From NCBI GenBank assembly GCA_036172245.1, contig JAYWIR010000015.1, forward strand, positions 1,860,001 to 1,924,000: a stretch of DNA of 64,000 nucleotides, written 5' to 3'. The position numbers were made by a program, and so were the translations under genes. The notes beneath the pieces were generated by a model that saw only the letters and a list, made by a program, of their open reading frames with translations, did not search any database and was not told the origin of the DNA. Positions 2,853 to 51,744 of this stretch are shown piece after piece; the first letter of the stretch is position 1, and each line of letters starts with the position of its first letter. Origin of the DNA: Raillietiella orientalis. Its lineage: Eukaryota.

Positions 2853-3252
2853 TGGATGCTTCAAAATTTCTCTGAAAGACACTTCCCGAAGGGAGCAGAG
2901 CGCTTCTTACACTCTGGAGAGGTGTCAACCAGCTACATGGTCTGCGATGCAGAATCCCTCTCCGGGGAAGGGGAGGGGGGATGGTTCCATTTTCACAACC
3001 GGATGAAAACCCCGAAGAGAACCGACTCTGTGATTCTTGGAAAGACCCCGGAGGGTAAACTTCCGATTCTGACCAGTCGATGGAGGCATCTGGTTTCCAT
3101 CAGTGCCAGCACCCGGATGAACCAGCCGGAGTCATCTTGCTGGGGGAACGCGAAACCCGCGATGCACCCCATTTCTCGGCGTTGATCCTTTTCCAGGCGG
3201 GATTCGAACCCGCAACGCTCTGGTGCCACGCCCGACAGCCGCGAATGCGGGC
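2853..3252 (-). mobile_element. tRNA-headed structured SINE-like element, copy 1 (5' part only)
   Basis: Minus strand has a perfect T-arm GCGGG-TTCGAAT-CCCGC (B-box GGTTCGAATCC at 3200-3210), a second B-box-like arm, then body sequence colinear with the copies at 21656 and 33034. Confidence 0.8.
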
Positions 3253-16989: not shown

Positions 16990-17425
16990 GGGTGACCACC
17001 AGCACGCAGGTCGTCCTCAAAGAAGTAAGGAAAGGCACGTGGGCAGGAGGAAATTCCCTTGCCGCCACGCTGCCATCCCTGCGGGAGCATCTTGGCAGCA
17101 GCAATCTAACGGGGAAATGGAAAGTCTTCTGCAAGCTTTCATCTAGAAGCAGGGCTAGCTAACGGACGCCGTGACTCCCAGTCTCCAGCCTCCTCAAAGA
17201 TGCCTTGTGTGTTGCGGTGAGCTGCTGAGCATTCCCGGTGAGGATCTCGAGTGGCCCCATCGTTCCTGAACAACGGCACTCTCCCTCTCAAGTGGCAGCA
17301 GGCGACGTTGCTGCTGTTGCACTGGGGCCTCTAATGCCACATTTCCGATCCCATTGGACCCGGGGAACTGTGGATCTGGATTTCAGCAGGTGCGGGAAAT
17401 GGGAAACCCTCCAGCACCTGCTTCT
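16990..17425 (+). mobile_element. LINE ORF2 C-terminal fragment, cut off by an antisense copy at 17426
   Basis: WAGGNSLAATLPSLREHL...GKWKV and HWTRGTVDLDFSRCGKWETLQHLLL; it stops exactly at the 3' terminus of the minus-strand copy. Confidence 0.75.
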
Positions 17426-19170
17426 CACCCGGGTGCGCAGGGGCGTTTGTTACTAAACTATCAGGGAAACATGTTCCTGGACAAAGGGTACAGAAAGACG
17501 AAGGAAGGGAACTCCGACACGCAGATCGGTAAATCCGAAAGTCCGGAACGGAAGAGAGGGGACCATCAATAAATATATATAAAAAAATTTAAAAAATATA
17601 TTCAGGAGTTGGGGACAGGGGTCTTTGGTATCGGCCGTTCCATCCTTTTAGAACCGGCGTTGGATGCCGGAGATCTTCCTGACGTCTTCTGGAAGATAAG
17701 GCCACCTGGCAGCCGACGTCATGTTGTCATTGGCTATTCCAATGGCCTCTCCAAAATCGCCTGCGACTCCAGCTGTCGGTGGCCTTGCCGATGGCGCGGA
17801 TGCAACATACCTTTGCGACAACCGCACCCAACGAGAGACCACCTGACGTGAAGAAGAGGCGCATTAATGTCCTTTCAGTGTCCCCCTGGTGCAGGAGAGC
17901 TGATGCCAGCCTCCGCCACAGTCCTAGGAGGGCACCGCAGTCCAGGAGCAGGTGCGGGAGCGTTTCCACTTCCCCGCACCGCTTACAGTTTGGGGAGGCA
18001 CTCCCCTGGAAACAATGTTCGCTCGCTGGTTGCAATGGAAGCCCCAATGCACCAGCATGATGACGTCCTGTTTCCACGAAAGGGGGAACACAGAAGTGTC
18101 CACGCACGAAGGAGGGACCACAGATTCTTCGAGGGATACACTGAGAAGTTCGCTCCACCGAAGGAGTCCCTTCGGGATGTTGCGAGGCGTGGCGGCGTCC
18201 GCCAGCCCACCTTGCCGGTAGGCAACTGCCCTCTTTTGCCCTTAGGGAAGACAGCGCTGCGGCAAGGGGCGTGGCTTCCAGACTGGTCCACTTGCCTTGG
18301 TTTCGCATCACATCTTCCAAAGGAAGATAGGGAGAAAGGTGCACGCAACAAAGTTCAATGAGCGGCACATCCCGATGCCTTGCCCAGGACGATAAGGCTT
18401 CCTGCCTCCGGGCATTAAGGTTCGTTGGGCGGCAGGAGATCCAAGTGTGGGTTTCCAGGAGCCGGTAAAGCGGTTTCAAGGGGAAACCGAAGCTTTTCGT
18501 GGAGCGCTCCGTATGCGGCAGTCACGAAAGAAGTCCGTCGCTGCCGGTGCAGCGCCTGAGTAGCAGGCGTGCGGGAGCACACCACGGAGTGAACCAAAGG
18601 TTGGCGCAAAGGGTCAACATACGAAACTGCACCTGCAGTTCCGTTCTTTCCAACGTCAGGATGCCTAAGCCAGCATCCCGACGCGAAGCCGCCAAGTCCT
18701 TGAGGCGGATCCTGGACCTCGCGGGTCCCCACAGAGCGTTTCTCAACAGGCGTCTCGCCTGGAGCTTGGCCGAGTAGGGGGGCGGACAAACAAAAAACAG
18801 GGGGCAGAAGAGGGGACCAACGAAGGTGTTCCAAACGAAGGCACGCTCCGGCAGGACGAACCTGCCAAGTTGGAACGGGCCCAGAGCACTCAGCCCTCCG
18901 AAGGCAGTCCGACCACGCCTCCACTGGACTGATGTCCCCCAGCGGGACGTCTAGGTACTTCAAAGACCTGGCCGTCGGAATCCCCAGGAGGATCCAGTCG
19001 GACTGCTCCTCCCACGCCGCACCAACAGGAACGACCATACTCTTGCTCCAGTTTACGCTCACTCCCGCTCCCTGGCGAATCAGCTCGAGGAAATCCTCGA
19101 GACTAGACGCCGGGGTGGACATGGGTAAGAGGAGAAGCAGGTCATCGGCATAAGCCGCCACGGACGGTGT
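17426..19170 (-). mobile_element. 5'-truncated LINE copy A (RT YADD to 3' end)
   Basis: AAYADDLLLL, VSVNWSKS, LKYLDVPLG and CKRCGEVETLPHLLLDC; several frameshifts. Ends AAACGCCCCTGCGCACCCGGGTG with no tail. Confidence 0.9.
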
Positions 19171-19182
19171 ACCTGAACAAGG

Positions 19183-19785
19183 TTTTTCACCCGGGTAAGC
19201 CGGGGCTTTTATTATTAAAATTTTAACAAATAAAAATTCCATAATAAAGTCTAGTCTTCAAGTGAATTTTGAGGAAGAACACTTCTGTTAAGTTCTGACA
19301 GTCTTGAGGTACCTGTCCCTAACGACCCGCAGGCCGGTAAGGTCCTCTCCACTGGCGAAGGGGCGGGAAAAACAGAAAAAACAAAAAACAAAAAAACGGG
19401 GTACAATGTTTATGGGGAGGGGAGGGAAGGGAAGAGATCACTGTTCGCCGTGAGGAGGCCTCTGCATCCGGTTTTGGATACGAACAAGGGCCGACAGAAT
19501 TTTTCTCAGCCGGAGCCAACGGAAAGCCTTCTTCACAGAGAGGACTGCCCAGTGGATGGCATTCCGACTACTGCGGCCTCTCCTTGACGCGGTCCACTTA
19601 TCCAGGATTCCACGTATGCAGCAGAGAACTGCAGCACACGCGGCGGCTGGCAGGGCGTCCCGCATCAGGAGGTAACGAAAAATGTTTCTAGGGTCGCCCA
19701 CCGGGATGTTTAGGATCGACGAGAGTCGATCCCACATGAGGCGGAGGGCAACACACTCGATTATTAAGTGGAGGAGATGCCCTGG
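19183..19785 (-). mobile_element. Short 5'-truncated LINE copy B
   Basis: HLIIECVALRLMWDRLSSILNIPVGDPR...AFRWLRL, then 3'UTR and AATAAAAGCCCCGGCTTACCCGGGTG-A5. Confidence 0.9.
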
Positions 19786-21655
19786 ACATTAGGGAGTTTT
19801 CACCCGGTCACGCCGGGGCGTTTATTAAAAAACACTTTACATTTGCGGTACTAGGCCCCGCTACGGCCAATATTTCATGGGACCTGCCAGGAAGCCGGTT
19901 CTGAGGCCAGCTTGTCCTCCTCGGCAGCGGAGGGGATAGGGGGTAAAACAAAAAGAAAAATAAATGAAATAACAAAAAGAAACTATTTGGGGGGCCGGGA
20001 AGGGATCACAACCCGCTAGAGGAAGAGACTATCCTTTCCAGGATGCCCTCGAGGTCCCTCATCATAGCTCCCAGATGGGACCAGCCGATCGCGATTCGCA
20101 GGTAGCGACCCGCGTGTACGATGGGGTCCCTGTCGCTGCTTCCTCTGTTGGCTGCGCTCCAGGCGGCCACAATCCCTCGGAGGCAGCAGAGCGCTGCCAG
20201 GGTTGAGGCTGGTGGCAGGGCGTCTCGCACGAAGAGGAGTCTCACAACGTCTCTGGGGGTACTGCCGACCGGCATAGGGAGGGTCGTAGCATAACGTTCC
20301 CACAAGGACCGGAGGGCAGCGCAGTCCACTAACAGATGGGGGAGGGATTCCTTCTCCCCGCACACTGCACAGTTCTGTCCCACGTTCCCCAACGTCCAGT
20401 GGTGGCGGCGCGCGTTGCAGGGAAGACCCCAGTGCAACAACAGCGCCGTTTCCTGCCACTTGAGGGGAAGGATGAATGCGTCTCTAAATAACGGGGGTCA
20501 CTCTAGGTCATCCGCCGGGATGCCAAGCAGCTCGCCGCATCTCCGTATTCCATGAGGGCGAACGCTTGGGGTTGCGGCGTCTGCCAGTTCCCTCATTGTC
20601 CACCCGCTTAGATCCTTCTTCTTGCCTGCTATCCGGCAGGAGACTTGCCATCTCGGCTTCCGGCTGTTTTGAAGCGCCCTTCGTAGGAAGGGCAGCGCTG
20701 TGGCCAGTGGGGTCGTCTCCGCCCAAGTGCTTCTGGCGGGACACACGATCATGTTCCGCAGCGTGCAGCGGGTGTAGATGCCGGTGCGCAGGCGGTTGCA
20801 GGATTCTCCACTGATGTGTTTCAACTTTGCCCACGTTCCAACTGTTTCTTCCAGCCATGCGCTGGAGTTGGCGGGGCTGCAGGCCATCCACCCGTTCTCC
20901 TTTGCCAGGGTGGCCATGCGTCCCAGGAGAAGTCCGCATCTTCTTATTTTCCGGCCGGGGCACAGAAGAAAAGACGCGAGTCCTTCAGTCCCGGACACAC
21001 GTCTGGCGAGAAGGCGGGCTGGAACGCACCAAGGGGTGTTCCACATTTTCGCTGCGATGGCTAGAGTCCGCCACCGCAGCTGTGTTTCCATTCGCTTCAT
21101 CGTCAGGACGCTAAGACCTCCGTCCCGACGTGGAGCGCACAAATCCTTTAAAGGCACACGAGGCCTCCCGCCGCCCCACAGCGCGATGCGTAGGAGGTCC
21201 TTTGTTCTTTTTTTCAGTTCACGGGGTACGGGGCAAACAAAAAGCAGGGGGCGAAGGAGGGGCGCCGCGAACGCGTTCCATACCGCTTCCCGTTCCGGCA
21301 AGTGTAACTTGCCGTCCCGGAACGGGCCGATCGCCAACTCCACTTTTTGGAGACGGTCGGACCAGGCTTCTGCAGCGCAGAAGCCCCCCAACGGAACGCC
21401 AAGGTACTTGAAGTACCCGCCTGTGGGGATACCCTAGCGGCTCCAGTCCGACCGTTCTGCCCGCGACGAGTCCATGAAAATAAAGGACGACTTCGTCCTG
21501 TTCACCTCGAGGCCTGTGACGCAGCAACTCGAAGAAATCCTCAAGCGCCGATGCCGGGGTGGACCCGGGGAGCAGGAGCAGAAGGTCGTCGGTGTAGGCC
21601 GACACGGCAGGTATGCCAGACACGAGCTCGGCAGGGTTGCCAAAGACTCCCTATA

Positions 21656-22733
21656 GCCCGCGTCGGAGGCTTTGTGGTTAAGGCTTCCGCGCGTGGCACC
21701 ATGCGTCGCGGGTTCGAATACTTCGGCAGAAACTGACGCCATTGCGTCGTTGGGTTCCGAGTTTCTCCTGCAACGGCGCTGGTTGGCCGAGATATTCGGG
21801 AGTGACCCCGGCGGTGGATAAAGCCGGAGGCCCCCGATGAAGGCCGGAACAATGGGAGTTGACCTTCGGATCCTCCCAGGAATAAAGGAGTGGGGAGTTC
21901 CCCCTCCGGTGTGCAACGGAGAGTGGACCCCCTTCACCGGGGGAACGCCTCCGGTTTCAAGATGGAGCAGGAGCCCTCACGGGCACCTCTCCAGTTGTTC
22001 AAAGGAGCGGACCCCCCTGTTGGGGGGTCCCTCCGAGTCGTCGCTTCTTCACAGAGTGCACAAGGAAGCAAGCGAGAGCGATTCCCTGCGGGAAGCTGCA
22101 GCGCCCCTTCTGAGTTTCGGAAGCGTCCCTTCGGGGTTCTCCTCAGAGGAGTGAACAGGAGCGGTTCCCTTGCGGGTTCCCTGCGGAGAAGAAATTCCTA
22201 CTAGCGGATCCCTTCCGCATTCCCTTCGGAGAAGTTGAAATGGAGAGGACAGCCCCTACCCATTGGGGGTGTCCCTCCGGAGAGAATGAGGAAGGAGATT
22301 CCCTTCGGGATTCCCCTTCGGAGACAACCAGGGTGGAAGGTGCTATACCTCCCAGACGGAGGGAATCTCTCCCCAAGCGTGAGAGGAACGGACTCCGAGC
22401 CCTTCCTGGATTTATAGGGAGGACCGCCATCTTGGGGTGCTCCCTATCCTGAAGAATTACACTGAAGAATTACACGCCCCCCTGAGGGTTGCCGCGGGCT
22501 GAGAGGAGTGGAAACAAATCAGTGTGTTTAATGTTTAAAAAGAGCCTCGTTTCCCCGAGGCACGCGACCGGCTCTGAGGTACTTAGCGAACCAAAAAAAG
22601 AAAACTCTTTAAAAAAAAAAGCTGGAAGGAAAACAGCGAAGACAGAAGAAAAAGAAGAACCCAAGGATTTCCATCGTCCTAGGCCAATAGTAACGATCTC
22701 CTCGTGGGGTCGCTACTGGGCTTTAAATAAAAA
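21656..22733 (+). mobile_element. tRNA-headed structured SINE-like element, copy 3 (full length, ~1078 bp)
   Basis: A-box-like TGTGGTTAAGG, B-box GGTTCGAATA (21711-21720), second arm near 21751, hairpin array 21850-22570, purine-rich tract, 3' hairpin 22683-22721, A tail. Degenerate TSD AAAGACTCCCTATA (21642-21655) / AAAGTCTTCCTGCA (22734-22747). Confidence 0.85.
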
Positions 22734-22979
22734 AAAGTCTTCCTGCATGCTGTCAGCACCGAATCAAAGTAGATGCTGAAGAGCAGGGGGCTGAGGCTGT
22801 CTCCCTGCCGAATGCCACGACGAACTGGCGCGCCGTACACGTGCCGGCCGCTGAAATTAATGTTGATGTACGCGAAGCGCCAGCAGGAGCGCAGATAGGC
22901 CAGGAAGACGGCCGGAAATCCCAAGCGTTCCAGAATCTCCAGAAGGAGTTCCTCGTCGACGCAGTTGAAAGCTTTACGC

Positions 22980-24718
22980 TAAAGCTCCCTATGTCCACCC
23001 CGGCTTCGGCGGTCGAGTTCTTCGACCTGCTGAATCGGGGAACCGGACTTACTGTGAACAGGAAGAAGTCGTCCGTAATGCCAGTTGGTGCGGCGTGGGC
23101 AGGGCAGCAGGACTGGGTCCGTTTGGGGATCCCCATAGTGAGGTACTTCAAGTACCTTGATGTGCCATTGGGGGACTATTCCCCTGCAGAAGTGTAGTCC
23201 CGCTGCCTCCAAAAAGTAGAGACGGCGATCGGCCCGTTCCGAGGCGGCAGGTTTTTCCTGCCGGAACGGGCCGCGGTTTGGAACACGTTCGCGGCTTCTC
23301 TCCTCCGTTCCCTGCTTTTTGTTTGCCCTCCCACAGAGAGAATTAAAAAGCGGACGAAGGAACTCCTCCGCGTCGGGACGGCGGTCTCGGCCTCCTGACG
23401 TTGGAGCGGCTGGAGCTTCAGCTCCAGTTCCGTTTGATGGCCGTTGTGCCGGAGTTGTGGTGCACCTGCTGGTGCGTCCCTGCACGTCTCCTCGTCAAGA
23501 AAGCCACCGGGAAGACAGAACTCACGTCCTTTCTTTCACTCCATCGCTCCCGCATCAACCGATGTAGGCTCCAGCTGCGGAGGGTGGCTGCCTTGGTTCG
23601 GAAAAATCAAGGATGGATCACCTGTCGCCCCACGAACGGTAGTGCCTGGTTGCTGGAAAGTGCCTGGTTCGCACGTTGGCACAATGTGGCATGCAACGCG
23701 CCCAACAGGAACGACGGTTCCTGTTTGGGTGCTACAGAAGTTGCACACTCCGAGAGATCCTGGAGGATCCTGAGGAGAGAGAGTGGTCAGGAAAAATCCC
23801 CCTCGCTGCTGCTCTGGCTTCCTTAATGGAAGATTAGGACAGCGATTGCGGCGAAGTGGGAGGTTAGAATAACTATCTCTGGAAAGAAGAAGATAGGAAG
23901 TGGAAGACGGGCCAGTTAACAGACGCTGCGACCCCGAGTACGCCTCCCCATGGACTTCTGCACTGGGGTACGCTGCTCGATGTTCCGATTGAACATCTGA
24001 AGTTGCCCCGGTGCTCATGAACACTTCCATCCTCTCCTTAAAATGGCAGGAGTCGGCTCTACTGTTGCAGCACTGGGGAGTCCCCTGCTACGCCCGCCGA
24101 CACCACTGGACCTGGGGAGCGGTGGACCCCGATTGTGTTAGGTGTGGGGAACGGGAGTCCCTCCCCCACCTCCTTGTGGATTGTGTTGCCCTTCGGTCCC
24201 TTTGGTTCCTCTTTGCCGCGGCCATCGGAATTCCCTGCGGCAACCCCAGGGACGCTGTGAAAACCCTCTTCGTGTCCGACGCCCTTCGGCCTGCGGCCTC
24301 GTTAGCATTCCTGTGCTGCCTTCGCGGGATGTAGCTGCTTAGAGCAAGGCAACGGGAGGACCTCGCGATAAGGGTGCCATCCAATGTGCCGCCGAATTTT
24401 TGGAGAGGGCGACGCGATGGCCCCACCTGGATCCAGTAATACAGAGAGAGCTTGCCGGCATTCTGCGAAGGATGCAACGGCCCCAGCAGCAACAGTGATC
24501 CCTTTCCGCACCCTCCCACGTTTTCTTTTGTTTTTGTTTAGTTTTTTTGTTTGTCTCCCCTTCCCCCTGCTGCCGTGGTGCACCGTACTGGTCTGCGAAC
24601 TGGTGACCCAGCAGACTCTGTGTTTCTTCGTGCGTGGCTGGCGCAATGGTCCAGCCACTGCACGTCTTTGTTAAAGTTTGTTCTTATAATAAACGCCCCG
24701 GCGGAACTCGGGTGAAAA
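22980..24718 (+). mobile_element. 5'-truncated LINE copy inserted antisense in the host RT
   Basis: LTVNRKKS, YFKYLDVPLG and CVRCGERESLPHLLVDC; terminal AATAAACGCCCCGGCGGAACTCGGGTG-A4. 15-bp TSD TTGAAAGCTTTACGC (22965-22979) / TCGAAAGCGTTACGC (24719-24733) duplicates the host D.RKAFD codons. Confidence 0.92.
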
Positions 24719-25425
24719 TCGAAAGCGTTACGCAAATCGACTGCGACCGCTAAGGCACCCGGCATTTCCTCTGACCGTATGCACCTACGCCTGCCCGTGG
24801 CAGCCGTCGTTGTGGCTGCCTGGCTTTGGTGCGCGACGCGTCGTTGCAGCTCGCGAGGAACAGGCTCACTTCCATGGACCGTCCGGGAACTGCGTAGGAC
24901 TGCTCCGGACTTACCACGGATTCTGCGATCCTGCCTAGGCGCGCGACCCAGAGCTTGCAGAACAACTTGATGTCCGCATTCACCAAAGTGATCGGACGCC
25001 AGTTGCTTAAATAGCGCATGTCTCCGCCTTTCGGCAAGAGACGCACTCTTGCTGAGCGAAACGAGGCCGCGACATTGCCCGTCTCTCGCATCAGCGAAGA
25101 AATGCTGAGCAGCAGGGGGATGAGTTCCGCCGCGAAGCACTGGAAGAACTCCGTAGGCAGACCATCTCACCAGGCGCCTTACGCCTCTTGAGGCCCACTA
25201 TGGAAGAAGACACTTCTTCCACCGTGAAGGGCAAATCCAAAGTCGCACGTTCCTCCTCGTCGTCAGCAAGGGTATCCGCCGGCAGAAGCAGCTCGGGGAG
25301 ACTGCGTTCCGTAGGCTCCCTTGCATACAACGAGGAATAATAGCGTTTAAGGAGACGACTCACGTCAGTTGCGGGCCTATGGACCGGTAGCGGCAAGTGT
25401 GTCAAGACAGGCCGAAACAAATGTT

Positions 25426-25508
25426 CTGCCTGAACATAACTCAAAGACTTTGTTATGACCTTTTTATTGTAAAAATTTCAATAACAAATGCCCCGGCATA
25501 CCCGGGTG
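25426..25508 (+). mobile_element. 83-bp 3'-terminal LINE fragment inserted antisense in the host ORF2
   Basis: Ends AAATGCCCCGGCATACCCGGGTG. 9-bp TSD ACAAATGTT (25417-25425) / ACAAACGTT (25509-25517). Removing it restores the host frame EMLSRNQRLFRPVL. Confidence 0.85.
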
Positions 25509-27344
25509 ACAAACGTTGGTTGCGGCTGAGCATTTCCGGCCCTGATCGTCAAGCAGACAGCTGCTCCAGACTACCAGACCTGGCTCTCGGCCATGGACTT
25601 GTACTCCGCAAGATGCCCGACATCCGAACATAGGGAGAATGTGCAGTCCTGCAGAAACGCTCTGCTGTTGGCCACGCCTTTCCCAAAGCCGCGAGGGAGC
25701 AGGAGCAAAGGGAACCGGCAGCAGAACTCGCGGATCGATCTTTCCAGATCGTCCCAATCCACAAGTACCTGAACGACCAAGCCCCGGAGGTGCTGGCGGG
25801 GGTGCTCCGCCGCAACAGGATTTTTCAACCAGTCGATCGGCATGCTCCAGACGTGCGTCGGAGGGCCCTTGCCAGGCAGGAAGAGCTCAAACTCCAGCCT
25901 GTGTGGTCGGAAAGCCCGGACGGCATGAGACCTCTTCGACCCACTCGACAGAGCAGGTGATCATCGAGGAACGGATGGTCCGGCAACGCTCGCATCCCAG
26001 GATCGTCGGCCAGCAAATTCAAAGCGTGCACGGAAGCGCACACCTCGTTCACCAGTCTCTTCTCCCGGCGACGGTGAGTCTCGTCCGATAGCACGTGGAC
26101 GTTAAAGTCCCCGGCAACGAGGGTGAACCACCTTGGGGCCGGATTTGCTGAGCCAGCGGCTGCGCAGGCTGCCGAAAAACTCGAGTCTCTCGGTGTGACG
26201 CGCGGGACCGCTCGGCGCGTACACGTTCGTGATGGCAAGGTCGATCGATTCGGACCACTTGAGAAGAAGCTGGCCCACTCGACCTTTCCCATCGAAACGG
26301 ATATTCCGCACCGACCCCGCCACCCTGTCCCGGACAACGAATGCAACTCAGCAAGTATTTCGGCAGCCTTGCCGCCAGTGGAGCGCCCTGCCTGCACGAC
26401 CTTCAAGATCGGCCGCTTGCTGTTCGGAGATGCCGTGTATCTCCTGCAGCAGGACCAGATCGAAGTCGCGCAAGGCGTTAGCTATCAGCCGCCTCTTCTC
26501 GAAGTCCTGCAGCCCGTTAACGTTCCAACAGGCCACGCAGACGCGACGAGAAGCTGTGGACATGGTGGCGGATTCCTTGTCCCGTCCGGCGAGGGATCAG
26601 CTGGGAGTACGGCAGATTGGAGTACGCTCCCAGTATCCGCCGCGCCGCACGCGGCTGGCTCGGTGGAGTCGAGGACCATTGCCTCGGGCTCCGAGGAGCA
26701 TCGGGAGCCGTTCCCGGCATCAGTCTCGGGCCTGGAAAGTTTGCCTTGCGCGCGGCTCCGGGTTGCCCCGGGCCTTCGTGCACTTTCACACTGGCATCAG
26801 ACTGCACCTCGGAGTCGGAAGGCCGCGCGCGAGATAGTCGTTTGGCCTGCTTTTTTCCTTGCTGGCAGCTCGATGCTGTTCCAGCGTTGGCGGCGGTTGC
26901 CGCCGTCACCGAAGCCGCTTTCGCCTTCGTAGCTTCGGCGTCAGTCACCTCCCGCTGGCTTCGGGCGACAGCGACGGCACACGAGACTGCGGCTGAAGCT
27001 TTTTTCTGCGCCTTTTTTGGCATGCGGAGCTGCTTTTTCAGCCTGCCTACCTGTATGATGGGAAAGTGAGAAGGATCCCTTCCTTTCTTCTTCTGCTTCT
27101 CCTCCCTCTGCTTCCCTTTTACCAAAGTCCAGCCCTCATCGCTGTCCTCTGGCGTTCCTTCCTTGGACGCGAGAGCCTCCAGAGCCCTTTGCATCCTTGC
27201 TAAAGGCTCCTTTTTGGCGACCGCGACCAGAAGCAGTCTCGCCACATCGCTTTTTGAGCCTCCTTACCGGAAGGTGCGGGCAAAGTGGAGGAATGATCCG
27301 GATTCGCGCGAGGCTTCGTAGCCTTTCCCGCAGTTTCTAGACAG

Positions 27345-28047
27345 TAAGCTGCTTCCCCTCAATCAGTGGCAGCAATCGGCGCTACTGATACTGCACTAGG
27401 GTCTCCCGTGCAATGCGCGCCGGCACCACTGGACCAGGGGAAGCGCTTCGCCGAACTGTGCCCGGTGGAGAGAAGGAGACCTTCCTTACCTCTTATTTCA
27501 GTGCGTCGCTCTCCGGGACTTGTGGGAACGTTTCTCTGCGTCCCTTTCTCACCCTGTGGGCGATCCCAGAGAATCCTCGGGCCCCTCTTCTCGCGGGGCG
27601 CTATGATATCCACAGCCGCAATCGCAGAGCTGTGCTGCGTGCGCGGTATCGTCGCGGCGAAATGTGACGCAGAGAGATGCCGGAGCGACAAGTGGGTGTC
27701 CTGCACGCCATCCGCTTTGTTCAGATAGCTTTGAGGTGGCCCCACATGGAAAGGAAGGAGGAGCTTGCCGACATCCTTCAACGGATACAGAGACCTCACC
27801 CACCACGAAATGCGATCCCCTCTCTTCCGCCACAACTAATTTTTTTGCTAGTTTTTATTGTTTATTATAGTTTGTTCTCTTTTTTTCTATTTCTGTGTCA
27901 TCCTCATTCCCCCTAGTGGACGTGATATAGCTCCCCCCCCCCTTTACTGTAGTAATCGGAATCGGTGGACCTTTGGGCTCCATTGATTCCTGTAAATGTT
28001 ATTTTTCCATAAGAAAAATAAATGCCCCGGCGCACCTGGGTGTGAAA
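27345..28047 (+). mobile_element. 5'-truncated LINE copy
   Basis: WQQSALLILHWGLPCNARRHHWTRG and IALRWPHM; T-rich UTR; terminal AATAAATGCCCCGGCGCACCTGGGTGTGAAA. Confidence 0.88.
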
Positions 28048-33000: not shown

Positions 33001-33033
33001 ATGGCATCCCGTACAAAGAGGGGATTCAAAGAG

Positions 33034-33705
33034 ACCCGCATTGGAGGCCATCTGCTTGCAGTCCCCGCGCGTATCACCAGACGTCGCGGATTGGAATACT
33101 CGGAAAGAAGCGACACCGGGGGCGATGGGGGTGCGTCGTGGGTTCGAGTTCTCCCGAAAGATGGCGCTGGCCGACCTGCCTTCGTGTGCGGCACTGGTAA
33201 CGAATAAAACTGGATGCCCCGATGAGTGGCTGAAATTGGGAGTCGACCTCCGGGTCCTTACAGGAAACAGAATCGAGGAGTGGGTAGTAACCCTCCGGTT
33301 GTGCAAAGGAACGAACCCCAGAGGGGTCCGTGTCTACCATGGAATATCTCCAGAGGGTAGAGAAGCGCCAGTCCCTTCAGGGAGAGCCCTTCTAAGAAAT
33401 TTCAGAAGCATCCCTTCGGGGTTCTCTTCGGAGGAGGAGTAAATAGGAGCTGTTCCTTTGCGGGTTCCCTCAGGAGAAGAGATTCCTGATAGCGGATCCT
33501 TTACGGGTTCCCTTCGGAGTTGAAAAATGGAGCCGACCCATCCGGAGGTCCCTTCAGAGAGAATAAGGATGAAGGATTTTCTCGGAGGTTCCCTTCAGAG
33601 ATATCTCTCCAGGTGCGAGAGGAGCGGACTCCCTTCTCCGGAGCCCTTCCTGGATTTATAGGGTAGTCTTCTCCCGGGGTACTTTCCATCCTGAAGAATT
33701 GACGA
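33034..33705 (+). mobile_element. tRNA-headed structured SINE-like element, copy 4 (3' part missing)
   Basis: Starts CCCGCATTGGAGGCC, has GGGTTCGAGTTCTCC, an empty target site GTGCGGCACTGG near 33186-33197, and a body colinear with copy 3 up to ATCCTGAAGAATT. Confidence 0.85.
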
Positions 33706-36700
33706 TGCTTAGGCGATCTTCGATTGTAGGGCTGGCCGAGGACGAACAGAGATGGTCGAAGGACGTCACCTGAGAGCCGCTTTGAAGGTCTGCGGAGGTA
33801 GACTCGCGCAAGCCATCTGACAAGTCACGTTTCCGAAAGAGAAGCGCATCTTTGCCGGAAGTGCGCGCTGTTCAAGGAATTCGTGGGTCAGCGGTCAGCA
33901 CCCCTCGTGAGCATCTTATCTTGCTCCTGATCTCCGTTACCGTACCATGTTGCCAAGGGACAGCGCTTGTGAGATGCTAGCTCGGCGCGGAACTTTCCCG
34001 CGATCTCGGCCGGAAACGTGCGGGTCCCTGCTGGGCGGATTCCGTCTTCAGCTCCGCGGTCACAGGGCACGAAAACAGCGACCGCTTCGCCGTGTCCCTG
34101 CTAGGGGAGGATGGGAGGGAGGGACTTACCGCTGTCTTTTTCCTCTCCTCCATGGAAATTTCCGGCCACGCCTTTTTTTACGGGGGAAGGGGGAGGGGGA
34201 AGCAAGCACAAGGCGGGTCACTGAGAAGCCGTTTGTTCGACCTCCACCAGGGTCTTCCTGGTAGCTGTTCTCTCCAGCAGCCACTCTCCTACAAATCCCC
34301 GCGTGATGACCGCGCTCGTGAGAGTCAGCGAAAGTCGGCGAAGAGTCAGCTGATGTGGCCTGTTCTTCCTCGACATGGGAGTTCACTGTATGCACGGAGT
34401 GAGGGGGTTGATGGAAGATGGTGGCTCCTTCGTGGACATCTTTGGCTTGAAGAACCAACTGCTCCTGGAAGCAATCTGGTTCCGCTGCATTCTCTGCCGA
34501 AGGAGGGTCTGAGCATCGGACCAAGAATCGGCGTTACCAGCCCATCCCTGTTTCGGGATGTGGATAAACGCCAACAGTTCCTGAACTCATTCAGTTCGGA
34601 TAAATAGGGATTTATCCCTGTCCGGTAATAACAGGAAAGCTCACATACTTGGGACAGCCAAGTTTCCGTCAGTGCTCCGTCCGCCTCAGGCCGTGTGGAC
34701 AGGTTTTCTGACAGTAGTAATCCTAGGTTCCCCCGCGCTTCCCTGAAACTCTCTCAACAGAAGCCCGTTCACGCTCCCAAGAAAACTTCGAACTGCATCA
34801 CGAGTGCTGGGAGTGACTCCACACTCTCGCCGCCACAAGGAATATCCATTTGAAGGATTATTCATCGTTTCCAGCAGTATACGGTTCCCCGAATTTCAAC
34901 CGATTCTTTCGCAGAGCTGCAGAACAGCCACCCTGTTCCCACCGCTGTGGCCTTTATGGACGCCGCTACTCAAGCCTGAACTCAAACTGGAGTCCGGGAC
35001 CACCGTTTTTCTGCTTTGCTTCCAACAAGTCTCTGGTCCTATTGAGCTCCGCTAATTTGCGGCCGTCTTTCGTAGCCAGAGTGAAGCCCTCCTTTGTATG
35101 TTGCCAGCACCTTTTATGAAAGAGATATGGATCAACAGATAGAGTAAATCAGCACGAATATCAAATGTACAGTTCTTATAGCAATTTTTCATCTTTGTGT
35201 TGAGGCAGCCGCGTGTGGCCTTTGGAAATTCCGAACAGGGAGTCTCCCTCTTTCAGCGAGGAACTAACATCATAAATACGATTAACACCATGAACACTTC
35301 TTTCACTCTTGTTAGTGTCTCTCCTGCAGATTTCATAATTCAGGCACACAGTCATCATTAAGTGAGTTCCCCTGACGAATGACCCTGCAGCACATGCCAG
35401 CATGCCTCCTGTGGCTGCTTCTCTCAGAAAAGAGCTCAAACTTGGAGGGTTTCAATATGACAAACTGGGGTACCAAGAATTCAGGATCAGATACAGGATC
35501 AAAATGCAAAATGCAAAAAAAAAAAAAAAAAAAAAAAAAAGAAACTATTCTTCCTTCCCTGGTTATGCGAATGGTTGCAAACAAATCCATGGGGAAAGTT
35601 GGTGGCAGTTTAACTACTCGAACAGTTGAAACGGTACATGCAGGAGGAAAAGGAATCACGACTGATCAAGAATCAGTTGAACAACATAACAGTTTAAGGG
35701 TACCGATGTTTCCTCTTAAAAGTCTCAAAATATCCTGTAGGAAAGCATACTGGCAACGGTGGCTGTGAGCAACACAATTCAGATGATCCGCTACCAGTAA
35801 AAGTTTATCATGAACGTTTAAAGAATAACTTGAAAAAAGGGATATTTGAGAAACATTGCGTATTTTCATGAAACATTCTAATCAGTTCTCTTTTACTCCA
35901 TTTGATAAAAGTCTTTTCTGTCACCAAAAATTTGCAAGATTGCACTTATCATCAAATGAATGAATTAAAATTTGGTCAGAAAATGAACGTTGTGCTGGCA
36001 ATCCTCACTCTTAATTAAGAATGGAACTGAGCAGAGTCACATGTTGGGTTTCCTCCTCGTGCTGATATGAAGGAGGAACGCAATGTCATTACATTACATC
36101 CGAAGCTTTGCTTCAAACCCCGTGGCATCAAGGAGCACATAAAAACATATGGCGACATGTGATGTAGGACTCACAGGAACGAAAGGATACGCTTGCTGCT
36201 TGCGTGCTCTTTCAAAGGACAATGTATACACATACACATATACATGCGTACACACATATATATGACGACAGAACGAATTAAACGACGAAGGGGCTCTAAG
36301 CAGAAATGGGTTCCATCTTTAAAAAACAAAAGGGATGGCGCTTTATTTCCCAGGAGGCAGGCCAAGCAGCTGAGGTGGAAGCCATCTTTCTGTCACTTCC
36401 AAATTCGCGCATTTTCATCTCCCCGAGAGCATCACCTGGAAGGAAGGATGCAGGCTGAAAACGAGACAAAATCGAACCTAGGAAGATACAGTGCGGGAAA
36501 ACTCGTGGAAAGGCGTTTCCAGGACGACTAGGGATGTCAGTACGCGCACTTTAAGCTCACTCGAGTACCTCTCTGATGCTCTCCGGAGCGATTCGTGATC
36601 GGCCGACGGGGGGCTCTCAAGCACAGAGACGATGAAGATGTGAAAGAATCCGGGAGGACCCCTCTTCCAGGTGTAAGCGCCGAGGGGACAATGAATTGCT

Positions 36701-45722: not shown

Positions 45723-46300
45723 TTTTTTTTTTTTGGTTCGCTAAGAACAACCGTTCGACTACCTGAGAAGGGGGGGGGGGGTCATGAAGCTCTTTAAGAC
45801 TGCCCACATCACCCGCGGTTGCATGTAACTCTTAAAGTTAAAGGGGTGATCCGGAAGGCTCCGGAAGAAGGGATCCGTTGCTCTCACGCCTGGTCTGACT
45901 ATCTCCCAAGGGAACGCCCGAGGGAACTTTTTTCTCATTCTCTCTGAAGGCGTTCCCCAGAGTGGGACGCTTTTCTAAAGAGAATCCCGAAGGGACGCTT
46001 CCAAATTTCTCGAAAGGGATCATCGCGCTTCTGAAGCTCTGGAGAGGCAACCCCCCGAGGGGATTAAAACCACCTTTATGGTACGAGATGGAGGGATCCT
46101 CTCCGTAGGAGGGGATGCCTCCATCTCCGCAACAACCGGAGGGGGAGCCTCGGAGAGAAGCAGGTCCTCGATTCCCGGAAGGACACCGGAGTGTCATCTT
46201 CCGATCCCGGAGGCCAGTCGGTGGTGAGATCCCAGACTTCAGCGGTGACTCGACTGCGACAAGGCGCGCGCTTACCACGCGGACGCCAGTCATTCGCGGT
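45723..46300 (-). mobile_element. Structured SINE-like element, copy 5 (diverged head, ends at A12)
   Basis: Body colinear with copy 3 (GGAAGCGTCCCTTCGGG, GCGTGAGAG.AACGGA, CTTAGCGAACC-An). Lies in intron 1 of the Ig gene. Confidence 0.8.
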
Positions 46301-47283: not shown

Positions 47284-47392
47284 GTAAGTGATTTCTGCAC
47301 TTCTTTCTCGTTTCGCCTCTTTTTTTTTAAAAAAAAAAAAAAAGGCTAGTAGGGACCTATCGGGAAGATCTCATCGGGTCACTACTGGCTTA

Positions 47393-48285
47393 CCACCCGA
47401 TTATGCCGGGGCATTTCTTAAGTAATAAAAGTACATTGGTGTGGTAGGACCTTTGGTTCTACCACGTGCAATGAATCTGCCGAAAGCCGGTTCGCAGACT
47501 GGCGAGGTCCACTTCGGCAGCGTGGGGGAAGGGTGGGGAAAAATAAACACACAAAACCTGGGTGGGAAAATTTTACACGGGGAGGGGGGAGACCGAGGAA
47601 GGGATCACAGTACGCTGCTAAGCTGCCCGACGTCTCCGGCATCCTGTTCAGGATGCTGACAAGTTCCGTCCATATGGAGCCCAGGTGGGACCGTTTCGAG
47701 GCAGTCTTCAGGAAGATCCGTGCCCAGAGGATGGTGTACCTGTCATTTCGCCATCTTTTTCTGGCATTCCAGGCCCCCGTGATCCCACAGAGACAGCAGG
47801 GAACTGCGAGAAACGCGGCTGGCGGCAGCGCGGCACGCACGAAGAGGTGTTTCATGATGTCCCTGGGGCCGCCCGCCGGGATTTCTAAAATGGTCGCGAG
47901 GCGATCCCAAAGGGGCCAGAAGGTGGCACAATCCAACAGCAGGTGCGAGAGGGCGTCCTTCCCGCACCTGCCACACTGAACGTCCACGCTCCCTCGTGTC
48001 CAATGGTGAAGGTGCGCTTTGCACGGGATTCCTCCGTGCACCACCAGCAATGCCAACTCCTCCTGCTACTTGAAGAAGGGGAGGAGCCACTGTCCCAGCA
48101 CGCTGGGAGCCACTTCACCTCCGGAGGGACGCCGAGCAGCTCTCCCCAGCGTACAAGCTTGGGGCAGGATAACTCGGAGTCACTTCTTGAAATGAAAAAC
48201 TTCCATTCGCCTGGAAGTTTCGCCCTTGCTGCTGCTGTGCAGAACGTCCCTTTCCACCTTGCCGGCATCACGCTGTCCCTCGCTT
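47393..48285 (-). mobile_element. 5'-truncated LINE copy inside SINE copy 6 (same orientation)
   Basis: LLVVHGGIPCKAHLHHWTRG..QCGRCGKDALSHLLLDC; 3'UTR hairpins; terminal AAATGCCCCGGCATAATCGGGTG. Confidence 0.88.
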
Positions 48286-48996
48286 CGGATGGTGGGAATC
48301 ATTTGAGCTTCTTTTCTGTTTCACTGCTTCCTTTCCAGCTTTTTTTTTTCCTTTCAGGTTTTCCTTTTCTTTCTTCTAGGTTTTGCAAAGTGCTGAAGAA
48401 CTGTCTGCCTCCTTAGGGGCACATCAGGGAGCTCTTTAACACCGCCCACACCACCAGGGGTACGTGTTACTCTTCAAGTTAGGGTGTAACCCCGGAGAAA
48501 TCACCGTGTGAATTCAGGAAACGCTTCGGAGGAAGGAGTCCGTTCCTCTTGCGCTTGGTAGGGGAACCCTCCTTACTGGTTGTCTCCGAAGGGAACCCTG
48601 AAAGGAACCTCTTCCTTATTCTCTCTGGTTGGACTCCCCAGAGGAGGTCACTCCATTGTTTCTTTCGGAAGGGAACCCGTAAAGCATCCGAGAATTTCCT
48701 CTCCAGAGAAAACCCGGATGGGAAGTGCTCTCTGCTCCTCCTCTAGAGAGAACCCTGAAGGAACGCTTCCGAATTTTCTCTGGAGGATCGCTCCCGAAGG
48801 GGACAGTGCGCTTCTTGACCCTCTGGAGAGGTATCGGTCCACCAGCTCCATGGCAGCGATGCAGGGTTGTCCCTTGAAGGGGGGACGGCTCCATTCTCAT
48901 AGCCGAAGGGGAACTTCGAAGGGAACTATCTCCTTGATGCCTGGGCGAATCCCGGGGGGTCAGTGGAGGACATCCGGAATCCACCAGTGCAGCACT

Positions 48997-49198
48997 GCCC
49001 CCCTCCCCCATTTTTTTGACTGCATTTTTTGTTTTGTTTGTTTCCCCTTCCCCTGTGCTGCCGGGGCGAACCCTGCTGGTCTGCGTGCCAGATCCCAGCA
49101 GGTTCCTTTTCGTATTCATAAGTAACGTGGCAGGATCCAGCGTCCTGCCACAGACATGTAGGTTTAGAAATAAGCGCCCCGGTGTGACCGGCTGTCAG
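48997..49198 (+). mobile_element. 202-bp LINE 3'UTR-only insert, antisense in SINE copy 6
   Basis: Perfect 13-bp TSD CCAGTGCAGCACT (48984-48996 / 49199-49211). Sequence matches the 3'UTR of 8793-9000. Confidence 0.92.
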
Positions 49199-51744
49199 CC
49201 AGTGCAGCACTCGAATACGTCAACCAGCGTCATCTTGCGAAGGGAACTCGACACCCGCGACGCACCCCATTTCTCATCGCCGATCTTTCCCCGGGTGAGA
49301 TTCGAACTCGCGACGCCCGGTAACACGTTCGAAGACTCCGGCCACGCATGGCCTCCAACGCGGGCTTCACCTCTTTTCTCACGCGTGCAAGCGGTGCCCT
49401 CACTTTCCCCACGTCAGCTTCTGCAGGCAAAGAGGCGTGCTTTCGTTCGGATCCGCCGATTGGGGCTAAAGGGAGCGTTTGCGGTTGTGCCCAATGCATT
49501 GACCCACCCGCCCACCTTCGAAGAGCACCTGAAACGGTAGGCACCGCCGCCTCTGACGCTACTTTTACGCCTTTTCCACACGGCCCGGTTCGCGTCTGAT
49601 GCCCTCTGTCTTGGTGGTGTGGGCGGCGACGTGATTTGTCAAAGTCCCTTTTCGAGGTTTACTCTTAGTCTGCACGCCGGTGTGCCTGGGTATGCCCGCT
49701 CGTAAACCTGTAACTATGTAGGAAACGTCACCAGGAAGCGCTTTCGTCACATGGATTGCATGTGGACATGACATGTTCGATGTCGCGTTAATGTTGATAA
49801 ATGTCTTCGTAAAGTTGCGCTGACTGACACGCGCTGTCCATTATCTGATCGGCGCTTCTACACTTGTGACCTCATGCGGATGACCTATAACAACCCATTC
49901 CCCTTTTCGTTGCAGAATTGCGTCTTCTTTCCTTTAGGTGGCCGCCGTGTGCTCCCCTTTAACGATAGCGGTGGCACGCACAGCTCGTGCACATACCTTG
50001 GGTCTTTTTCCTTAATCGTTTGTTGGTGTCTTCGCCATCAGCTGCTCCGGGGGATCATGCTTCTCCTCCTTACTTTAGTCTCAGGGTCTACCTAGCTACC
50101 GTTTTCTTCCTAGGTCTTGCGCTCTTTCGTTTCCCTCGCTATAGAACGACGTCAGATGCACATTAGACACGGATTCCCTCATGAAACTCCTGGTGGCCTT
50201 TTTCGCTCTCTTGATGGAGCTTCACCTCATCTGCAGCTGGCGTACGCTGCACCCATGGAAACAACCAGCACATGAGTTGGTTGCTCTCGACACAAAGTGA
50301 GACAGGAACCAATGCAAGAGTACCGCACGTGTATTCTCGAACTTTCCGGCAGTTTTCTCCAGCAATTACTTTGGTGATCCACAAGAAGCACGAAGGCTGC
50401 TCGTCTTGGTCCGTCAAGATCCGGAAAGTTCAGTTCCTGGGTGGTATAGGAACCTTCGGGATATGCCACTACGCCACTAAATGCCTTTCAAAAGCTATCT
50501 GGAGGATACGTTCAGCTCGACATTTTGACAGTCCACGACGAATCCAGATGCTGGAGCACCAGAGGCACTACTCGAAGCAAAGTGCCGTGGCATGTTTGGG
50601 GTATCCTGCTGTCCCACTTTACAGCCCAAATGGATCCGGAAGACGATTCGGTGGACCCGTTTCGCTCTTCTAAGGGAATTGTACCGGTGCGTTCTTTCGT
50701 AGATGAGAACACTGAGAAGATGAGATATAGCCGGAGAGATCGATGCTCGTAACTGGGGAGCACGTTCCCTGTCGTCCAGCGCCGCCGGCATTGGCTGCAA
50801 GGAAGGTCCCATCGCAGGGATCCGCGTGTGGCCACCTGAGGGGCAGCGCAGAACCTCTCAAAGGGCACCACTGGCACGTCTTGGAGAATGTCGAGATCGT
50901 CTTTCTACCGGCGCACTCCTCGGGCGCGGGCACTAGGCGTCGCGGTGTCCGAAAGTTGTGGAACCGACCACCAGTCTGGTAGCGGAGACCTCGGCTGCTG
51001 TCATCGCGCTCCCACAGAGAGGGCAGCTCTGCGGATAGGAGCGTGGCTGTGCGCTCTTCTTGGGGTGTGATGGTGGCTCTTCCTGTGGGGGTGGTGTCCC
51101 GAGGTCGCGTAGGACGGGGCGAAGCAGCTCTGGGCTGGCCCGCGAGATGCCTGAGCCAGTATCCGGAGCTTCGCCTTCGTGGGAGGAGCGGTGGGCCCGC
51201 GAATGGGCAGCAAGAGCGAGGAAAGCTCTCGTCTAGGTGTGGGGGGAGGAGTTGGGTTGGCAGCGGCAGGATTCAAACGCTCAACCTTCCGCAGCTTGGA
51301 GCACGTGAGGTTTCCTCCGCTGCTATGCTACGCGCGCCCGGAGAGCCTTCTCGAGTGCCGTCGCCCGAGTGCTGCTCGAGTGCGCAGGTACGCACTTGCT
51401 TGGCCGACGTCCCCGCTGCGTACGACGCCGTCGTGCCGCCGAGCTGCTTCTCAAGATTTCGGCTCCTTTTGGGGCGGCGGGGCTCCTTTCAGAGCACCGC
51501 CGCTCTCGCCGCCGTCCCGGCATCCCCACGAGCAGAACGACGGGCATGCGACCCCTGGTTCTTGGGCTGCTGACATCGTGCATCCCCACTGCCTCATCCC
51601 TGCAGCGAAGAACTGGAAATAGGGTTCCTGCATGGCCTTTTCCCTCTTTCTGGAGAGTCTCCCCGCGTCTCTCCATCCGCTGGGCTTCCAGAGAGGATGG
51701 GGCTCTCGTGAACTTGCGTTCCTCACCGACCCGTCTTCCCGTAG

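Follow-up and report, generated by a model that had tools for sequence, protein, structure and literature searches.

The element is an unusually long SINE-like retroposon and appears to be a new length and architecture of a known kind of element. Its six copies in the window (the whole stretch of DNA analysed, 64 kb) probably belong to an old family of long (~1.08 kb), non-coding and non-autonomous non-LTR retroposons of SINE-like build, in which the hairpins are mostly a by-product of repeats. The assignment as a retroposon follows from target-site duplications (TSDs), tails, 5' truncation, the splitting of a LINE reverse-transcriptase gene by copy C3, and the lack of a coding signal. From 5' to 3' the element would consist of a tRNA-derived 5' end, a body of ~600 nt, an A-rich stretch, a terminal hairpin and a T/A tail (Table 1).

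Copies, termini and LINE context

Six homologous copies had been listed in an earlier note, and 6/6 were recovered by nhmmer, with nothing else, when 21656-22733 (copy C3) was used as query in the 64-kb window (E 1e-46 to 1e-4): C1, 2851-3252(-); C2, 8612-8805 plus 9923-10408(+); C4, 33034-33721(+); C5, 45690-46255(-); C6, 48261-49023 plus 49176-49365(-). A profile search with all copies gave no seventh copy in the window (single extra match, 45 nt, E 0.09). Plain blastn with C3 returned pieces of just two other copies, and for this reason the family is considered old; C3 and C5 are members of different subfamilies. The copies lie in both orientations and in different contexts, the flanks differ for all of them, and the family takes up about 10% of the window, interleaved with one LINE family. 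A LINE-rich coccidian had been considered as the source of the DNA, but this was given up once an Ig-domain exon came to light; the LINE endonuclease piece, searched in a protein atlas, yielded no taxon. A 22-letter degenerate pattern of the best-conserved module, searched against metagenomes, gave 3 loci, 0 of them element-related (nhmmer, E<=10).

Table 1. Positions of the copies, of the parts of copy C3 and of the adjoining LINE sequences (numbering of the window)
Feature	Position	Strand	Basis and remarks
C1: head and first modules	2853..3252	-	missing or interrupted beyond element position ~380 (3' side)
C2	8612..10408	+	SINE parts 8612-8796 and 9986-10408; antisense LINE 3' piece (~8797-9985) between; 3'-truncated
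C3: full-length unit, 1081-1082 nt, GCCCGCG start to A8 tail	21655..22736	+	ends set by TSD
C4: element positions 2-803	33034..33721	+	3' end missing
C5: 5'-truncated, A12 end	45723..46230	-	flanks AAGTCTGGG / AAGTCTGAG
C6: full unit, 12-nt TSD	47320..49365	-	two LINE 3' pieces inside
LINE pieces interrupting C6	~48996-49198 (antisense); ~47394-48281 (sense)		C6 lies on the minus strand
C3 upstream TSD, contains AAAGACTCCCT	21642..21654	+	sequence and element-end coordinates
Box-A-like stretch, then TTAAGGC; resembles D-arm of a long-arm tRNA	21667..21677	+	by eye, against the consensus
Box-B / T-arm-like stretch GGTTCGAATAC	21711..21721	+	alignment of heads
Second T-arm-like segment, partial head duplication	21737..21770	+	common core
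Body: degenerate, hairpin-rich tandem array of ~40-nt modules on TCCCTTCGG core	21840..22440	+	spacing, z, internal repeat
Hairpin A, sole stem with clear compensatory changes	21854..21877	+	shuffle test; p<=0.05 in 3/6 copies
Module-C hairpin, true counterpart of the long C5 hairpin	21917..21953	+	alignment; p<=0.05 in 4/6 copies
C3-only 87-nt segment with hairpin 22004-22034	21999..22085	+	partial tandem duplicate of preceding module
Internal A-rich stretch	22590..22660	+	its first A-run is the end of copy C5
Terminal hairpin just 5' of TTTAAATA8 tail	22682..22721	+	predicted fold
C3 downstream TSD AAAGTCTTCCT, overlapping the A-run	22733..22744	+	9/11 letters as in upstream copy
Decayed host LINE, C3 inserted between its RT motifs	19798..26481	-
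Exo_endo_phos domain of host LINE	25828-26481
RVT_1 of host LINE	24753-25166 and 22682-22978
zf-RVT of host LINE	20009-20497

The TSDs are AAAGACTCCCT / AAAGTCTTCCT for C3 (9/11 letters equal), AAAAGAGGTGAA / AAAAGAGGCGAA for C6 (11/12 letters equal) and AAGTCTGGG / AAGTCTGAG for the 5'-truncated C5; the tails are A8 (C3), A12 (C5) and A9 (C6). The TSD-bounded unit of ~1.08 kb proposed previously is thereby confirmed (1081 nt in C3; TSDs in C3 and C6, C5 also flanked), as is the extent 47324-49365 proposed for C6, which is backed by its 11/12 TSD. The letters GCCCGCG directly after the TSD are the common start of the copies having a 5' end. At the other end, C6 carries the same terminal hairpin as C3, followed by T15A9; AATAAA was seen by eye inside the C3 tail. 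A conserved ORF had been denied, in agreement with what was found: 0/14 ORFs of the element match Pfam at E<=0.1, stops occur in all three sense frames, and the indel runs are mostly frame-breaking (44/59 are not multiples of 3 in the copy pairs compared).

The copies were inserted by target-primed reverse transcription, presumably with LINE enzymes: the TSDs measure 9-12 nt, the tails are of A, one copy is 5'-truncated and the copies are dispersed in both orientations. Beyond C3 the host LINE takes up its reverse-transcriptase frame again, and a YTDD-type motif was read by eye just left of C3, in the third frame. A search for the 3' end of a partner LINE with the element tail (nhmmer, 22440-22733, in the window) gave the C5 and C6 tails only and no LINE 3' ends. 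That the unit is itself a piece of an autonomous LINE, from its 5' UTR or its 3' part, or that the copies are segmental duplicates, is most improbable: the copies are interleaved with LINE fragments, C4 adjoins a piece of LINE 3' UTR and LINE pieces lie within C6, but in C3 and C6 it is the 1.08-kb unit itself that the TSDs enclose, all flanks differ, no similarity of the unit or its tail to the LINE fragments of the window was detected by nhmmer, and none of the SINE-like copies precedes an endonuclease/RT ORF.

Near-identical LINE 3' ends were found at the same site (GTGCTGCACTGG) in two much more diverged SINE-like copies. These same-site insertions are perhaps a more testable lead and could reveal a sequence-specific LINE.

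Tandem modules and hairpins of the body

The body consists of ~40-nt modules in a decayed tandem array, with a 12-13-nt sub-repeat; the partly self-complementary TCCCTTCGG core lies between purine-rich spacers, and the copies differ in how many modules they have. With <=2 changes allowed, TCCCTTCGG occurs 47 times in sense vs 7 times in antisense in 3817 nt of element; background counts on the two strands are 138 and 125 in 57,427 nt. C3 contains 13 such cores, their spacings clustering at 12-13 and 39-44 nt, and the spacings in C4 are 39, 12, 43, 43, 40, 41 and 40; an internal repeat was detected in the body (70% identity, E 3e-4). The 87-nt segment particular to C3 is missing in 5/5 other copies (alignment); when it is aligned with 21912-21998, 20 of the first 32 columns agree. 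Within the element, contigs of sequencing run X1 (94 short DNA contigs, 90-99% alike, used for module-skipping joints only) skip 87, 77, 102, 176 and 69 nt, with the 87-nt skip of one contig falling at 21999..22085; a second run, X2, gave nothing.

A hairpin-rich body had been described as well, and this stands for C3 (local-fold z -4.4 vs dinucleotide shuffles, compared with a mean of +0.4 and sd of 1.2 for 12 control segments) and for C5 (z -3.0), but not for the four remaining copies, which are at about -1 (sense strand). The antisense strand is nearly as foldable (C3, z -3.9). Hairpins with p<=0.05 were obtained for 8/12 modules of C3 and for 7/45 module-by-copy cells outside C3; at modules A, C and I the hairpins of both C3 and C5 are significantly stable and are built from different stem letters. 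The MFE fold makes up a negligible share of the ensemble, and other registers compete with it. Counts of G-U pairs were tried as a strand test and dropped as inconsistent (sense higher in 4 copies, antisense in 2). C-TNCG-G is an RNA-specific stable loop type, and 32 motifs of this kind were counted in sense vs 10 in antisense. The CTTCGG-like loops reported for the stems were not borne out, the motifs being almost never closed tetraloops in the predicted folds (cUNCGg in 0/19 hairpins of C3, one in C5). Nothing points to the suggested ribozyme-containing or IRES-like RNA: Rfam 15 gave 0 families at gathering score in the 64-kb window, and the 6 rows within the element (E 0.6-6.4) are all far under the gathering score and at chance level.

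Covariation of the stems between copies, claimed from two cited hairpins, holds for those two and is absent from the other 172 pairs. The cited helices were chosen post hoc; they show 8 both-side-changed pairs vs 4.0±1.4 in shuffles (2/500) and a covariation score of 0.235 vs 0.148 (0/500). Hairpin A together with a 4-bp neighbouring helix has 7 both-side-changed pairs vs 2.4±1.3, 0/500 shuffles being as high. After exclusion of the two hairpins the score is 0.058, equal to the shuffle mean of 0.058 (245/500; 26 helices, 172 pairs), so that 26/28 helices are at chance; for the C3-derived structure as a whole, the values slightly exceed those of the shuffles (73.9 vs 71.9% paired, 0/500; 21 vs 14.0 pairs, 5/500). 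The second stem pair, as originally cited, was a mismatched comparison, since the C3-only duplicated module had been set against the module of the other copies.

A fold under selection in several master copies, as had been supposed, is not supported. Stem retention between copies equals the independent-substitution expectation (z -0.84 to +1.07, 30 ordered copy pairs), although an alignment by sequence of six copies in decay is of low power and shifted stems may go unseen in it. RNAalifold was run block by block (the all-fragment alignment is too gapped and gave no pairs); the covariation term was zero or a penalty in all four blocks (+0.2, +0.07, +0.8, +1.5), and the column-shuffle z by block was -3.1, -0.7, -1.6, -1.6, -1.0, -1.15, -3.3, -0.4, the ninth block having too few rows. 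A large selected fold has no support; only hairpin A and the module-C position appear to be maintained by compensatory change, and short local stems may have mattered for the source RNAs.

It is unlikely that the unit is a large structured RNA with hairpins selected in source copies (e.g., as a protein-binding scaffold aiding stability or LINE capture), the missing covariation being noise of neutral decay. Such an RNA would be consistent with hairpins A and C covarying beyond shuffles, with the stable hairpins in 8/12 modules of C3 and the strong hairpins of C5 built from different letters (A, C, I), with the body z values of these two copies and with the sense bias of C-TNCG-G; against this stand the equality of every measure with shuffles outside two post-hoc helices, the small number of significant cells outside C3, an antisense strand that folds as well, the negligible ensemble frequency of the MFE fold, CTTCGG motifs that do not form closed tetraloops, and the lack of an Rfam match. 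Template switching, in the excerpted text of PMC8794818, can moreover yield paired changes without selection.

On the preferred reading of the hairpins as a by-product of repeats, most of the hairpin potential would arise because pyrimidine blocks can pair, in many registers, with the purine blocks next to them; processes of replication or template switching within the repeats may contribute. The case calls for caution: C-run/G-run arms in hairpin-rich repeats give eye-catching "compensatory" pairs that are mostly gone under controls.

The tRNA-like head and transcription

Of its tRNA parts, the 5' end would retain only a box-A-like stretch and a T-arm/box-B segment in duplicate. The box-A stretch was compared with the consensus TRGCNNAGTGG; the box-B-like letters match the box-B consensus at 8-11/11 positions in five heads (by eye on the alignment), and the core GCRTCG-CGGGT is common to both T-arm-like segments in C1, C3 and C6. 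In C1 the Rfam tRNA model matched nothing but the T-arm (12.1 bits vs gathering 29), and it gave no row for C3 or C6. ARAGORN at default settings found 0 tRNA genes in the window; at relaxed -ps80 a cloverleaf was obtained in 3/5 heads, with a weak tRNA-Leu at the C3 head. A functional tRNA gene is therefore not recognised (no complete cloverleaf by ARAGORN default, T-arm only by Rfam), and of the tRNA head claimed earlier, the T-arm/box-B-like segment, present twice, is retained, but default tRNA detectors reject the head.

We lean slightly towards Pol III transcription from the head through the body, which is without T4 runs in C3. The absence of TTTT from C3 had been considered as a Pol III argument and was discarded as not significant (P(0)=0.26). 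A Pol II-transcribed composite of SVA type (head relic, VNTR-like array and tail) or a read-through product, with the head a fossil and of no promoter role, is doubtful. In its favour, the unit of 1081 nt is too long for the SINE definition (<700 bp), its middle resembles a VNTR in which the module number varies, AATAAA lies in the C3 tail, a T15 run precedes the A-run of C6, tRNA detectors reject the head and the lack of TTTT has no significance; the constant GCCCGCG start right after the TSD, however, fits a transcript from an internal promoter, five heads retain the box-B-like letters, and an upstream promoter could not travel with the copies.

If the head drives Pol III through ~1.1 kb, the accepted size limit of SINEs would be stretched, and the element would be a tRNA-headed counterpart to VNTR-bearing composites like SVA that could help in studying what sets the length limit of LINE-mobilised RNA. 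A further combination, quite improbable as a whole, is a Pol III-driven retroposon of >1 kb in which a few selected hairpins (A, C, perhaps I; UNCG-type caps) within an expandable array dock LINE proteins or stabilise the RNA, and which is also the preferred landing site of a young LINE subfamily; if the landing-site part were true, the SINE and the LINE would each be a parasite of the other. For the present, the value of the family as an SINE-like retroposon lies mainly in the annotation of the window.

Comparison with known elements

In the excerpted text of the SINEBase paper, SINEs are defined as <700 bp, the 175 consensus sequences span 75-662 nt (mean 253), and a body of unknown origin is the commonest pattern, with 41% of families (PMC3531059). 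As far as that excerpt describes tRNA-derived SINEs, the element is like them in its head-body-tail build, putatively tRNA-related 5' end with box-B-like letters, body of obscure origin, A-rich tail, TSDs, 5' truncation and lack of an ORF, and unlike them in its 1081 nt, which lie above the range of 75-662 nt and outside the size definition. It differs further in that its recognisable tRNA part is the duplicated T-arm only, its body is a decayed tandem array, a second A-rich stretch and a terminal hairpin are present, and no partner LINE tail was found in the window.

The SVA and LAVA elements of primates are non-autonomous, exceed 1 kb, contain a GC-rich VNTR-like array of variable unit number, and are mobilised by LINEs, with TSDs and an A tail. 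The present element is likewise >1 kb and non-autonomous, with a central VNTR of variable unit number, TSDs and an A tail; its repeat unit is ~40 nt with a 12-13-nt sub-repeat, and it is set apart by description in having a tRNA-like head and no Alu-like, hexamer or retroviral-derived parts. In the 7SL-derived SINEs (Alu/B1), stems are kept by compensatory change and the fold is a protein-binding domain covering the element; hairpins A and C of the present element similarly change on both sides between subfamilies, whereas 26/28 helices are without compensatory signal.

Stringent LINE/SINE pairs share a 3' stem-loop, according to the excerpt of PMC5135761. In both the element and the co-resident LINE, a few bases separate a final hairpin from the tail, but, unlike in stringent pairs, no sequence common to the two hairpins was detected (tail search, window). 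Template switching in replication, as described for other RNAs in the excerpt of PMC8794818, creates and keeps hairpins; to the extent covered there, perfect stems and paired changes arising in one step fit the near-perfect palindromes of the element, e.g., 22004-22034.

Copies of the element and of the LINE family

The non-coding SINE-like element was searched in the window by nhmmer (query 21656–22733), and exactly six places on both strands were obtained (E 1e-46 to 1e-4); thus all six copies of the earlier note, and no others, were recovered (C1–C6, C3 being the full-length reference). An all-copy profile gave no seventh copy in the window (sole extra match 45 nt, E 0.09). Ordinary blastn of the window detected fragments of two other copies only, and the copies are therefore old. 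In one sequencing run, 94 short DNA contigs were 90–99% like LINE flank plus SINE (region 21300–23100), so closer relatives of C3 than the other five window copies exist in some genome.

Coordinates of the features in the window
Feature	Positions	Strand	Remark
C1	2853-3252	-	nhmmer
C2	8612-10408	+	nhmmer
C3	21655-22736	+	nhmmer query region
C4	33034-33721	+	nhmmer
C5	45723-46230	-	nhmmer
C6	47320-49365	-	nhmmer
Hairpin A	21854-21877		in C3
Module C hairpin	21917-21953		true C3 counterpart of module C of other copies
87-nt segment	21999-22085		C3 only, missing from other five copies
13-nt tandem doublet	22449-22475	+	C3 tail region
T15 run	47329-47343	-	C6 tail
LINE, main piece	19798-26481	-	
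LINE fragments	669-1318, 15706-15866, 17010-18448, 19294-19776, 23525-24707, 27345-27811, 30124-30930, 32822-33032, 47384-48264		
Exo_endo_phos	25828-26481	-	C3 host element
RVT_1	24753-25166 and 22682-22978	-	C3 host element
zf-RVT	20009-20497	-	C3 host element
V-set piece, weak	58211-58462	+	23.2 bits, cut-off 26; upstream of Ig ORF
Ig_3 exon-like ORF	60836-61198	+	E 2.8e-10; also I-set, Ig_2, ig

The host of C3 is a decayed minus-strand non-LTR element, the reverse-transcriptase frame of which is broken off at one edge of C3 and resumed with the downstream RT region beyond the other; the flanks, AAAGACTCCCT and AAAGTCTTCCT, are identical at 9 of 11 positions. C6 starts directly after AAAAGAGGTGAA and, behind a terminal hairpin and T15A9, ends at AAAAGAGGCGAA; its long extent in the earlier note was correct, the tail being split by a sense-oriented LINE 3' fragment (~47394–48281). 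C5 is 5'-truncated and stops with A12 at an A-run inside the element; AAGTCTGGG and AAGTCTGAG lie on its two sides. Flanks of different copies are unrelated. None of the 14 ORFs over the copies matched Pfam, stops occur in all sense frames, and of the 59 indel runs separating the compared copies 44 have a length not divisible by three; the ~1.08-kb unit without conserved ORF proposed earlier was thus confirmed (1081 nt, flanked by duplications). From the flanking repeats, unrelated flanks and lack of coding capacity it follows that the unit is a 1081-nt non-autonomous, LINE-mobilised retroposon; insertion of the element by target-primed reverse transcription is shown.

Much of the window is occupied by a single decayed LINE family with APE-type endonuclease, RT and zf-RVT; at the end of its 3' UTR stand a T-rich tract, stem-loops, a terminal hairpin and GTGAAAA, in place of a long poly(A). 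LINE 3' ends in C2 (~8797–9985) and C6 (~48996–49198) occupy the same SINE site (target GTGCTGCACTGG), both antisense, with different 5' truncation (lengths ~1185 nt and ~200 nt, respectively). These pieces are 92.3% identical (167/181; 12 of 14 mismatches transitions), as against 74.5% (120/161) for the adjoining SINE heads and 58% (216/371) for the bodies; by this measure, the LINE pieces are far younger than the copies that carry them. Other LINE 3' ends of the window are only 59–65% like them. As judged from the sequences, this suggests either that a young LINE subfamily preferring this site inserted twice, independently, or that gene conversion took place. In the former case the insertions would be reminiscent of Tx1-type LINEs, which are sequence-specific.

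The DNA of the window (GC ~0.45–0.62) is eukaryotic. The immunoglobulin-domain signal was the sole non-transposon coding signal found in the window; the Ig_3/I-set ORF and the weak V-set piece, which are probably part of an Ig-superfamily gene, indicate an animal genome.

The body as a decayed tandem array

The ~600-nt body of the element was built as a tandem array and has since decayed. In 3817 nt of copies, the core TCCCTTCGG (≤2 changes) was found 47 times in sense and 7 times in antisense (background: 138 and 125 in 57,427 nt), with spacings clustered at 12–13 and 39–44 nt (C4: 39, 12, 43, 43, 40, 41, 40 nt); Tandem Repeats Finder gave 12–13-nt doublets. C3 has an internal repeat of 70% identity (E 3e-4), and the first part of its 87-nt segment repeats the preceding module (20/32 first columns identical). 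Stretches of 87, 77, 102, 176 and 69 nt of the element are skipped in the short DNA contigs, so the number of modules also differs between copies elsewhere. The exact 13-nt doublet of the C3 tail region (CTGAAGAATTACA × 2) is present as one unit in other copies.

Local-fold energy of the body was 4.4 sd (C3) and 3.0 sd (C5) below dinucleotide shuffles; for C1, C2, C4 and C6 z was −1.0 to −1.3, and for 12 control segments +0.4 on average (sd 1.2). Antisense values were about the same as sense (C3 −3.9, C5 −2.0, C1 −2.7), and G-U counts of the two strands of the copies gave no consistent preference. Values of p ≤ 0.05 were obtained in 15/57 module-by-copy cells (8/12 in C3, 7/45 elsewhere, chiefly in modules A, C and I); the global MFE had negligible ensemble frequency. 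The hairpins with CTTCGG-like loops described earlier were hardly reproduced in predicted folds: closed C(UNCG)G loops occurred in 0/19 predicted hairpins of C3 and almost never overall, because the pyrimidine cores are also able to pair with purine spacers.

Covariation

Stems predicted in one copy were mapped to another through the E-INS-i alignment; 51–73% of pairs were kept, as expected for independent substitution (z −0.84 to +1.07, 30 ordered comparisons). RNAalifold gave −10.1 (block I; only hairpin A and a 4-bp helix), −0.03 (II), −7.3 (III) and −6.45 kcal/mol (IV), no block with a covariation bonus (terms +0.2, +0.07, +0.8, +1.5) and column-shuffle z of −0.4 to −3.3.

Pair counts against 500 shuffles (related sequences; structure taken from one aligned row)
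Structure	Quantity	Observed vs shuffles	As high
Hairpin A + small helix	pairs changed on both sides	7 vs 2.4±1.3	0/500
C3 local fold, six-copy alignment (195 pairs, 28 helices)	% cells paired	73.9 vs 71.9±0.6	0/500
same	pairs changed on both sides	21 vs 14.0±2.7	5/500
same	further pair types	62 vs 59.0	96/500
Two hairpins of the earlier note, chosen post hoc from 28 helices	pairs changed on both sides	8 vs 4.0±1.4	2/500
same	covariation score	0.235 vs 0.148	0/500
Other 26 helices (172 pairs)	pairs changed on both sides	13 vs 9.9±2.2	63/500
same	further pair types	46 vs 46.4	338/500
same	covariation score	0.058 vs 0.058	245/500

Covariation of stems between copies, as claimed earlier, thus held for the two hairpins cited, which exceed shuffles, and not for the other 26 helices, which match them; in the second example a C3-only duplicated module had been set against module C of other copies. 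Source RNAs may have kept two or three short hairpins; on these alignments, the array in its entirety does not behave as a covarying fold. According to PMC8794818, paired changes in palindromic repeats can come from template switching without selection. No Rfam family reached gathering score in the 64-kb window, and a ribozyme, IRES or large selected scaffold found no support.

Head, transcription and relation to known systems

Five copies have a GCCCGCG-like start and a box-B-like stretch (8–11 of 11 letters as in the consensus GGTTCGANNCC, alignment judged by eye); in C3 a box-A-like stretch is followed by TTAAGGC. ARAGORN found no tRNA gene in the window at default settings, and weak cloverleaves in 3/5 heads at relaxed threshold. 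With the Rfam tRNA model the sole match was to the T-arm in C1 (model positions 47–63, 12.1 bits vs gathering score 29, E 6.6), no tRNA row being obtained for C3 or C6. In C1, C3 and C6, behind the first T-arm-like segment stands another with the same core. The head passed none of the tRNA detectors at default settings; "tRNA-headed" is on this evidence a fair label with weak support.

Transcription by Pol III from a putative internal promoter in the head appears slightly the better reading; a Pol II or read-through transcript, like those of SVA-type composites, is the rival possibility. TTTT is absent from the C3 sense strand (chance expectation of absence 26%). C6 has T15 between the terminal hairpin and A9, where C3 has only TTT; the T15 run would terminate Pol III transcription ahead of the A tail. 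No partner LINE was found in the window, the last 294 nt of the element matching the C5 and C6 tails only; the co-resident LINE 3' end has its own hairpin (…CCCCGGCGTGACCGGGTGAAAA).

In SINEBase, SINEs are defined as <700 bp (consensus lengths 75–662 nt, mean 253, 175 families), and the 1081-nt unit falls outside them on length. Repeat databases may already list the element for its genome. It shares build and mobility with tRNA-derived SINEs, but differs by its excess length and only T-arm-like head. SVA/LAVA composites have a VNTR-bearing middle, and the VNTR-like middle of the element recalls theirs.
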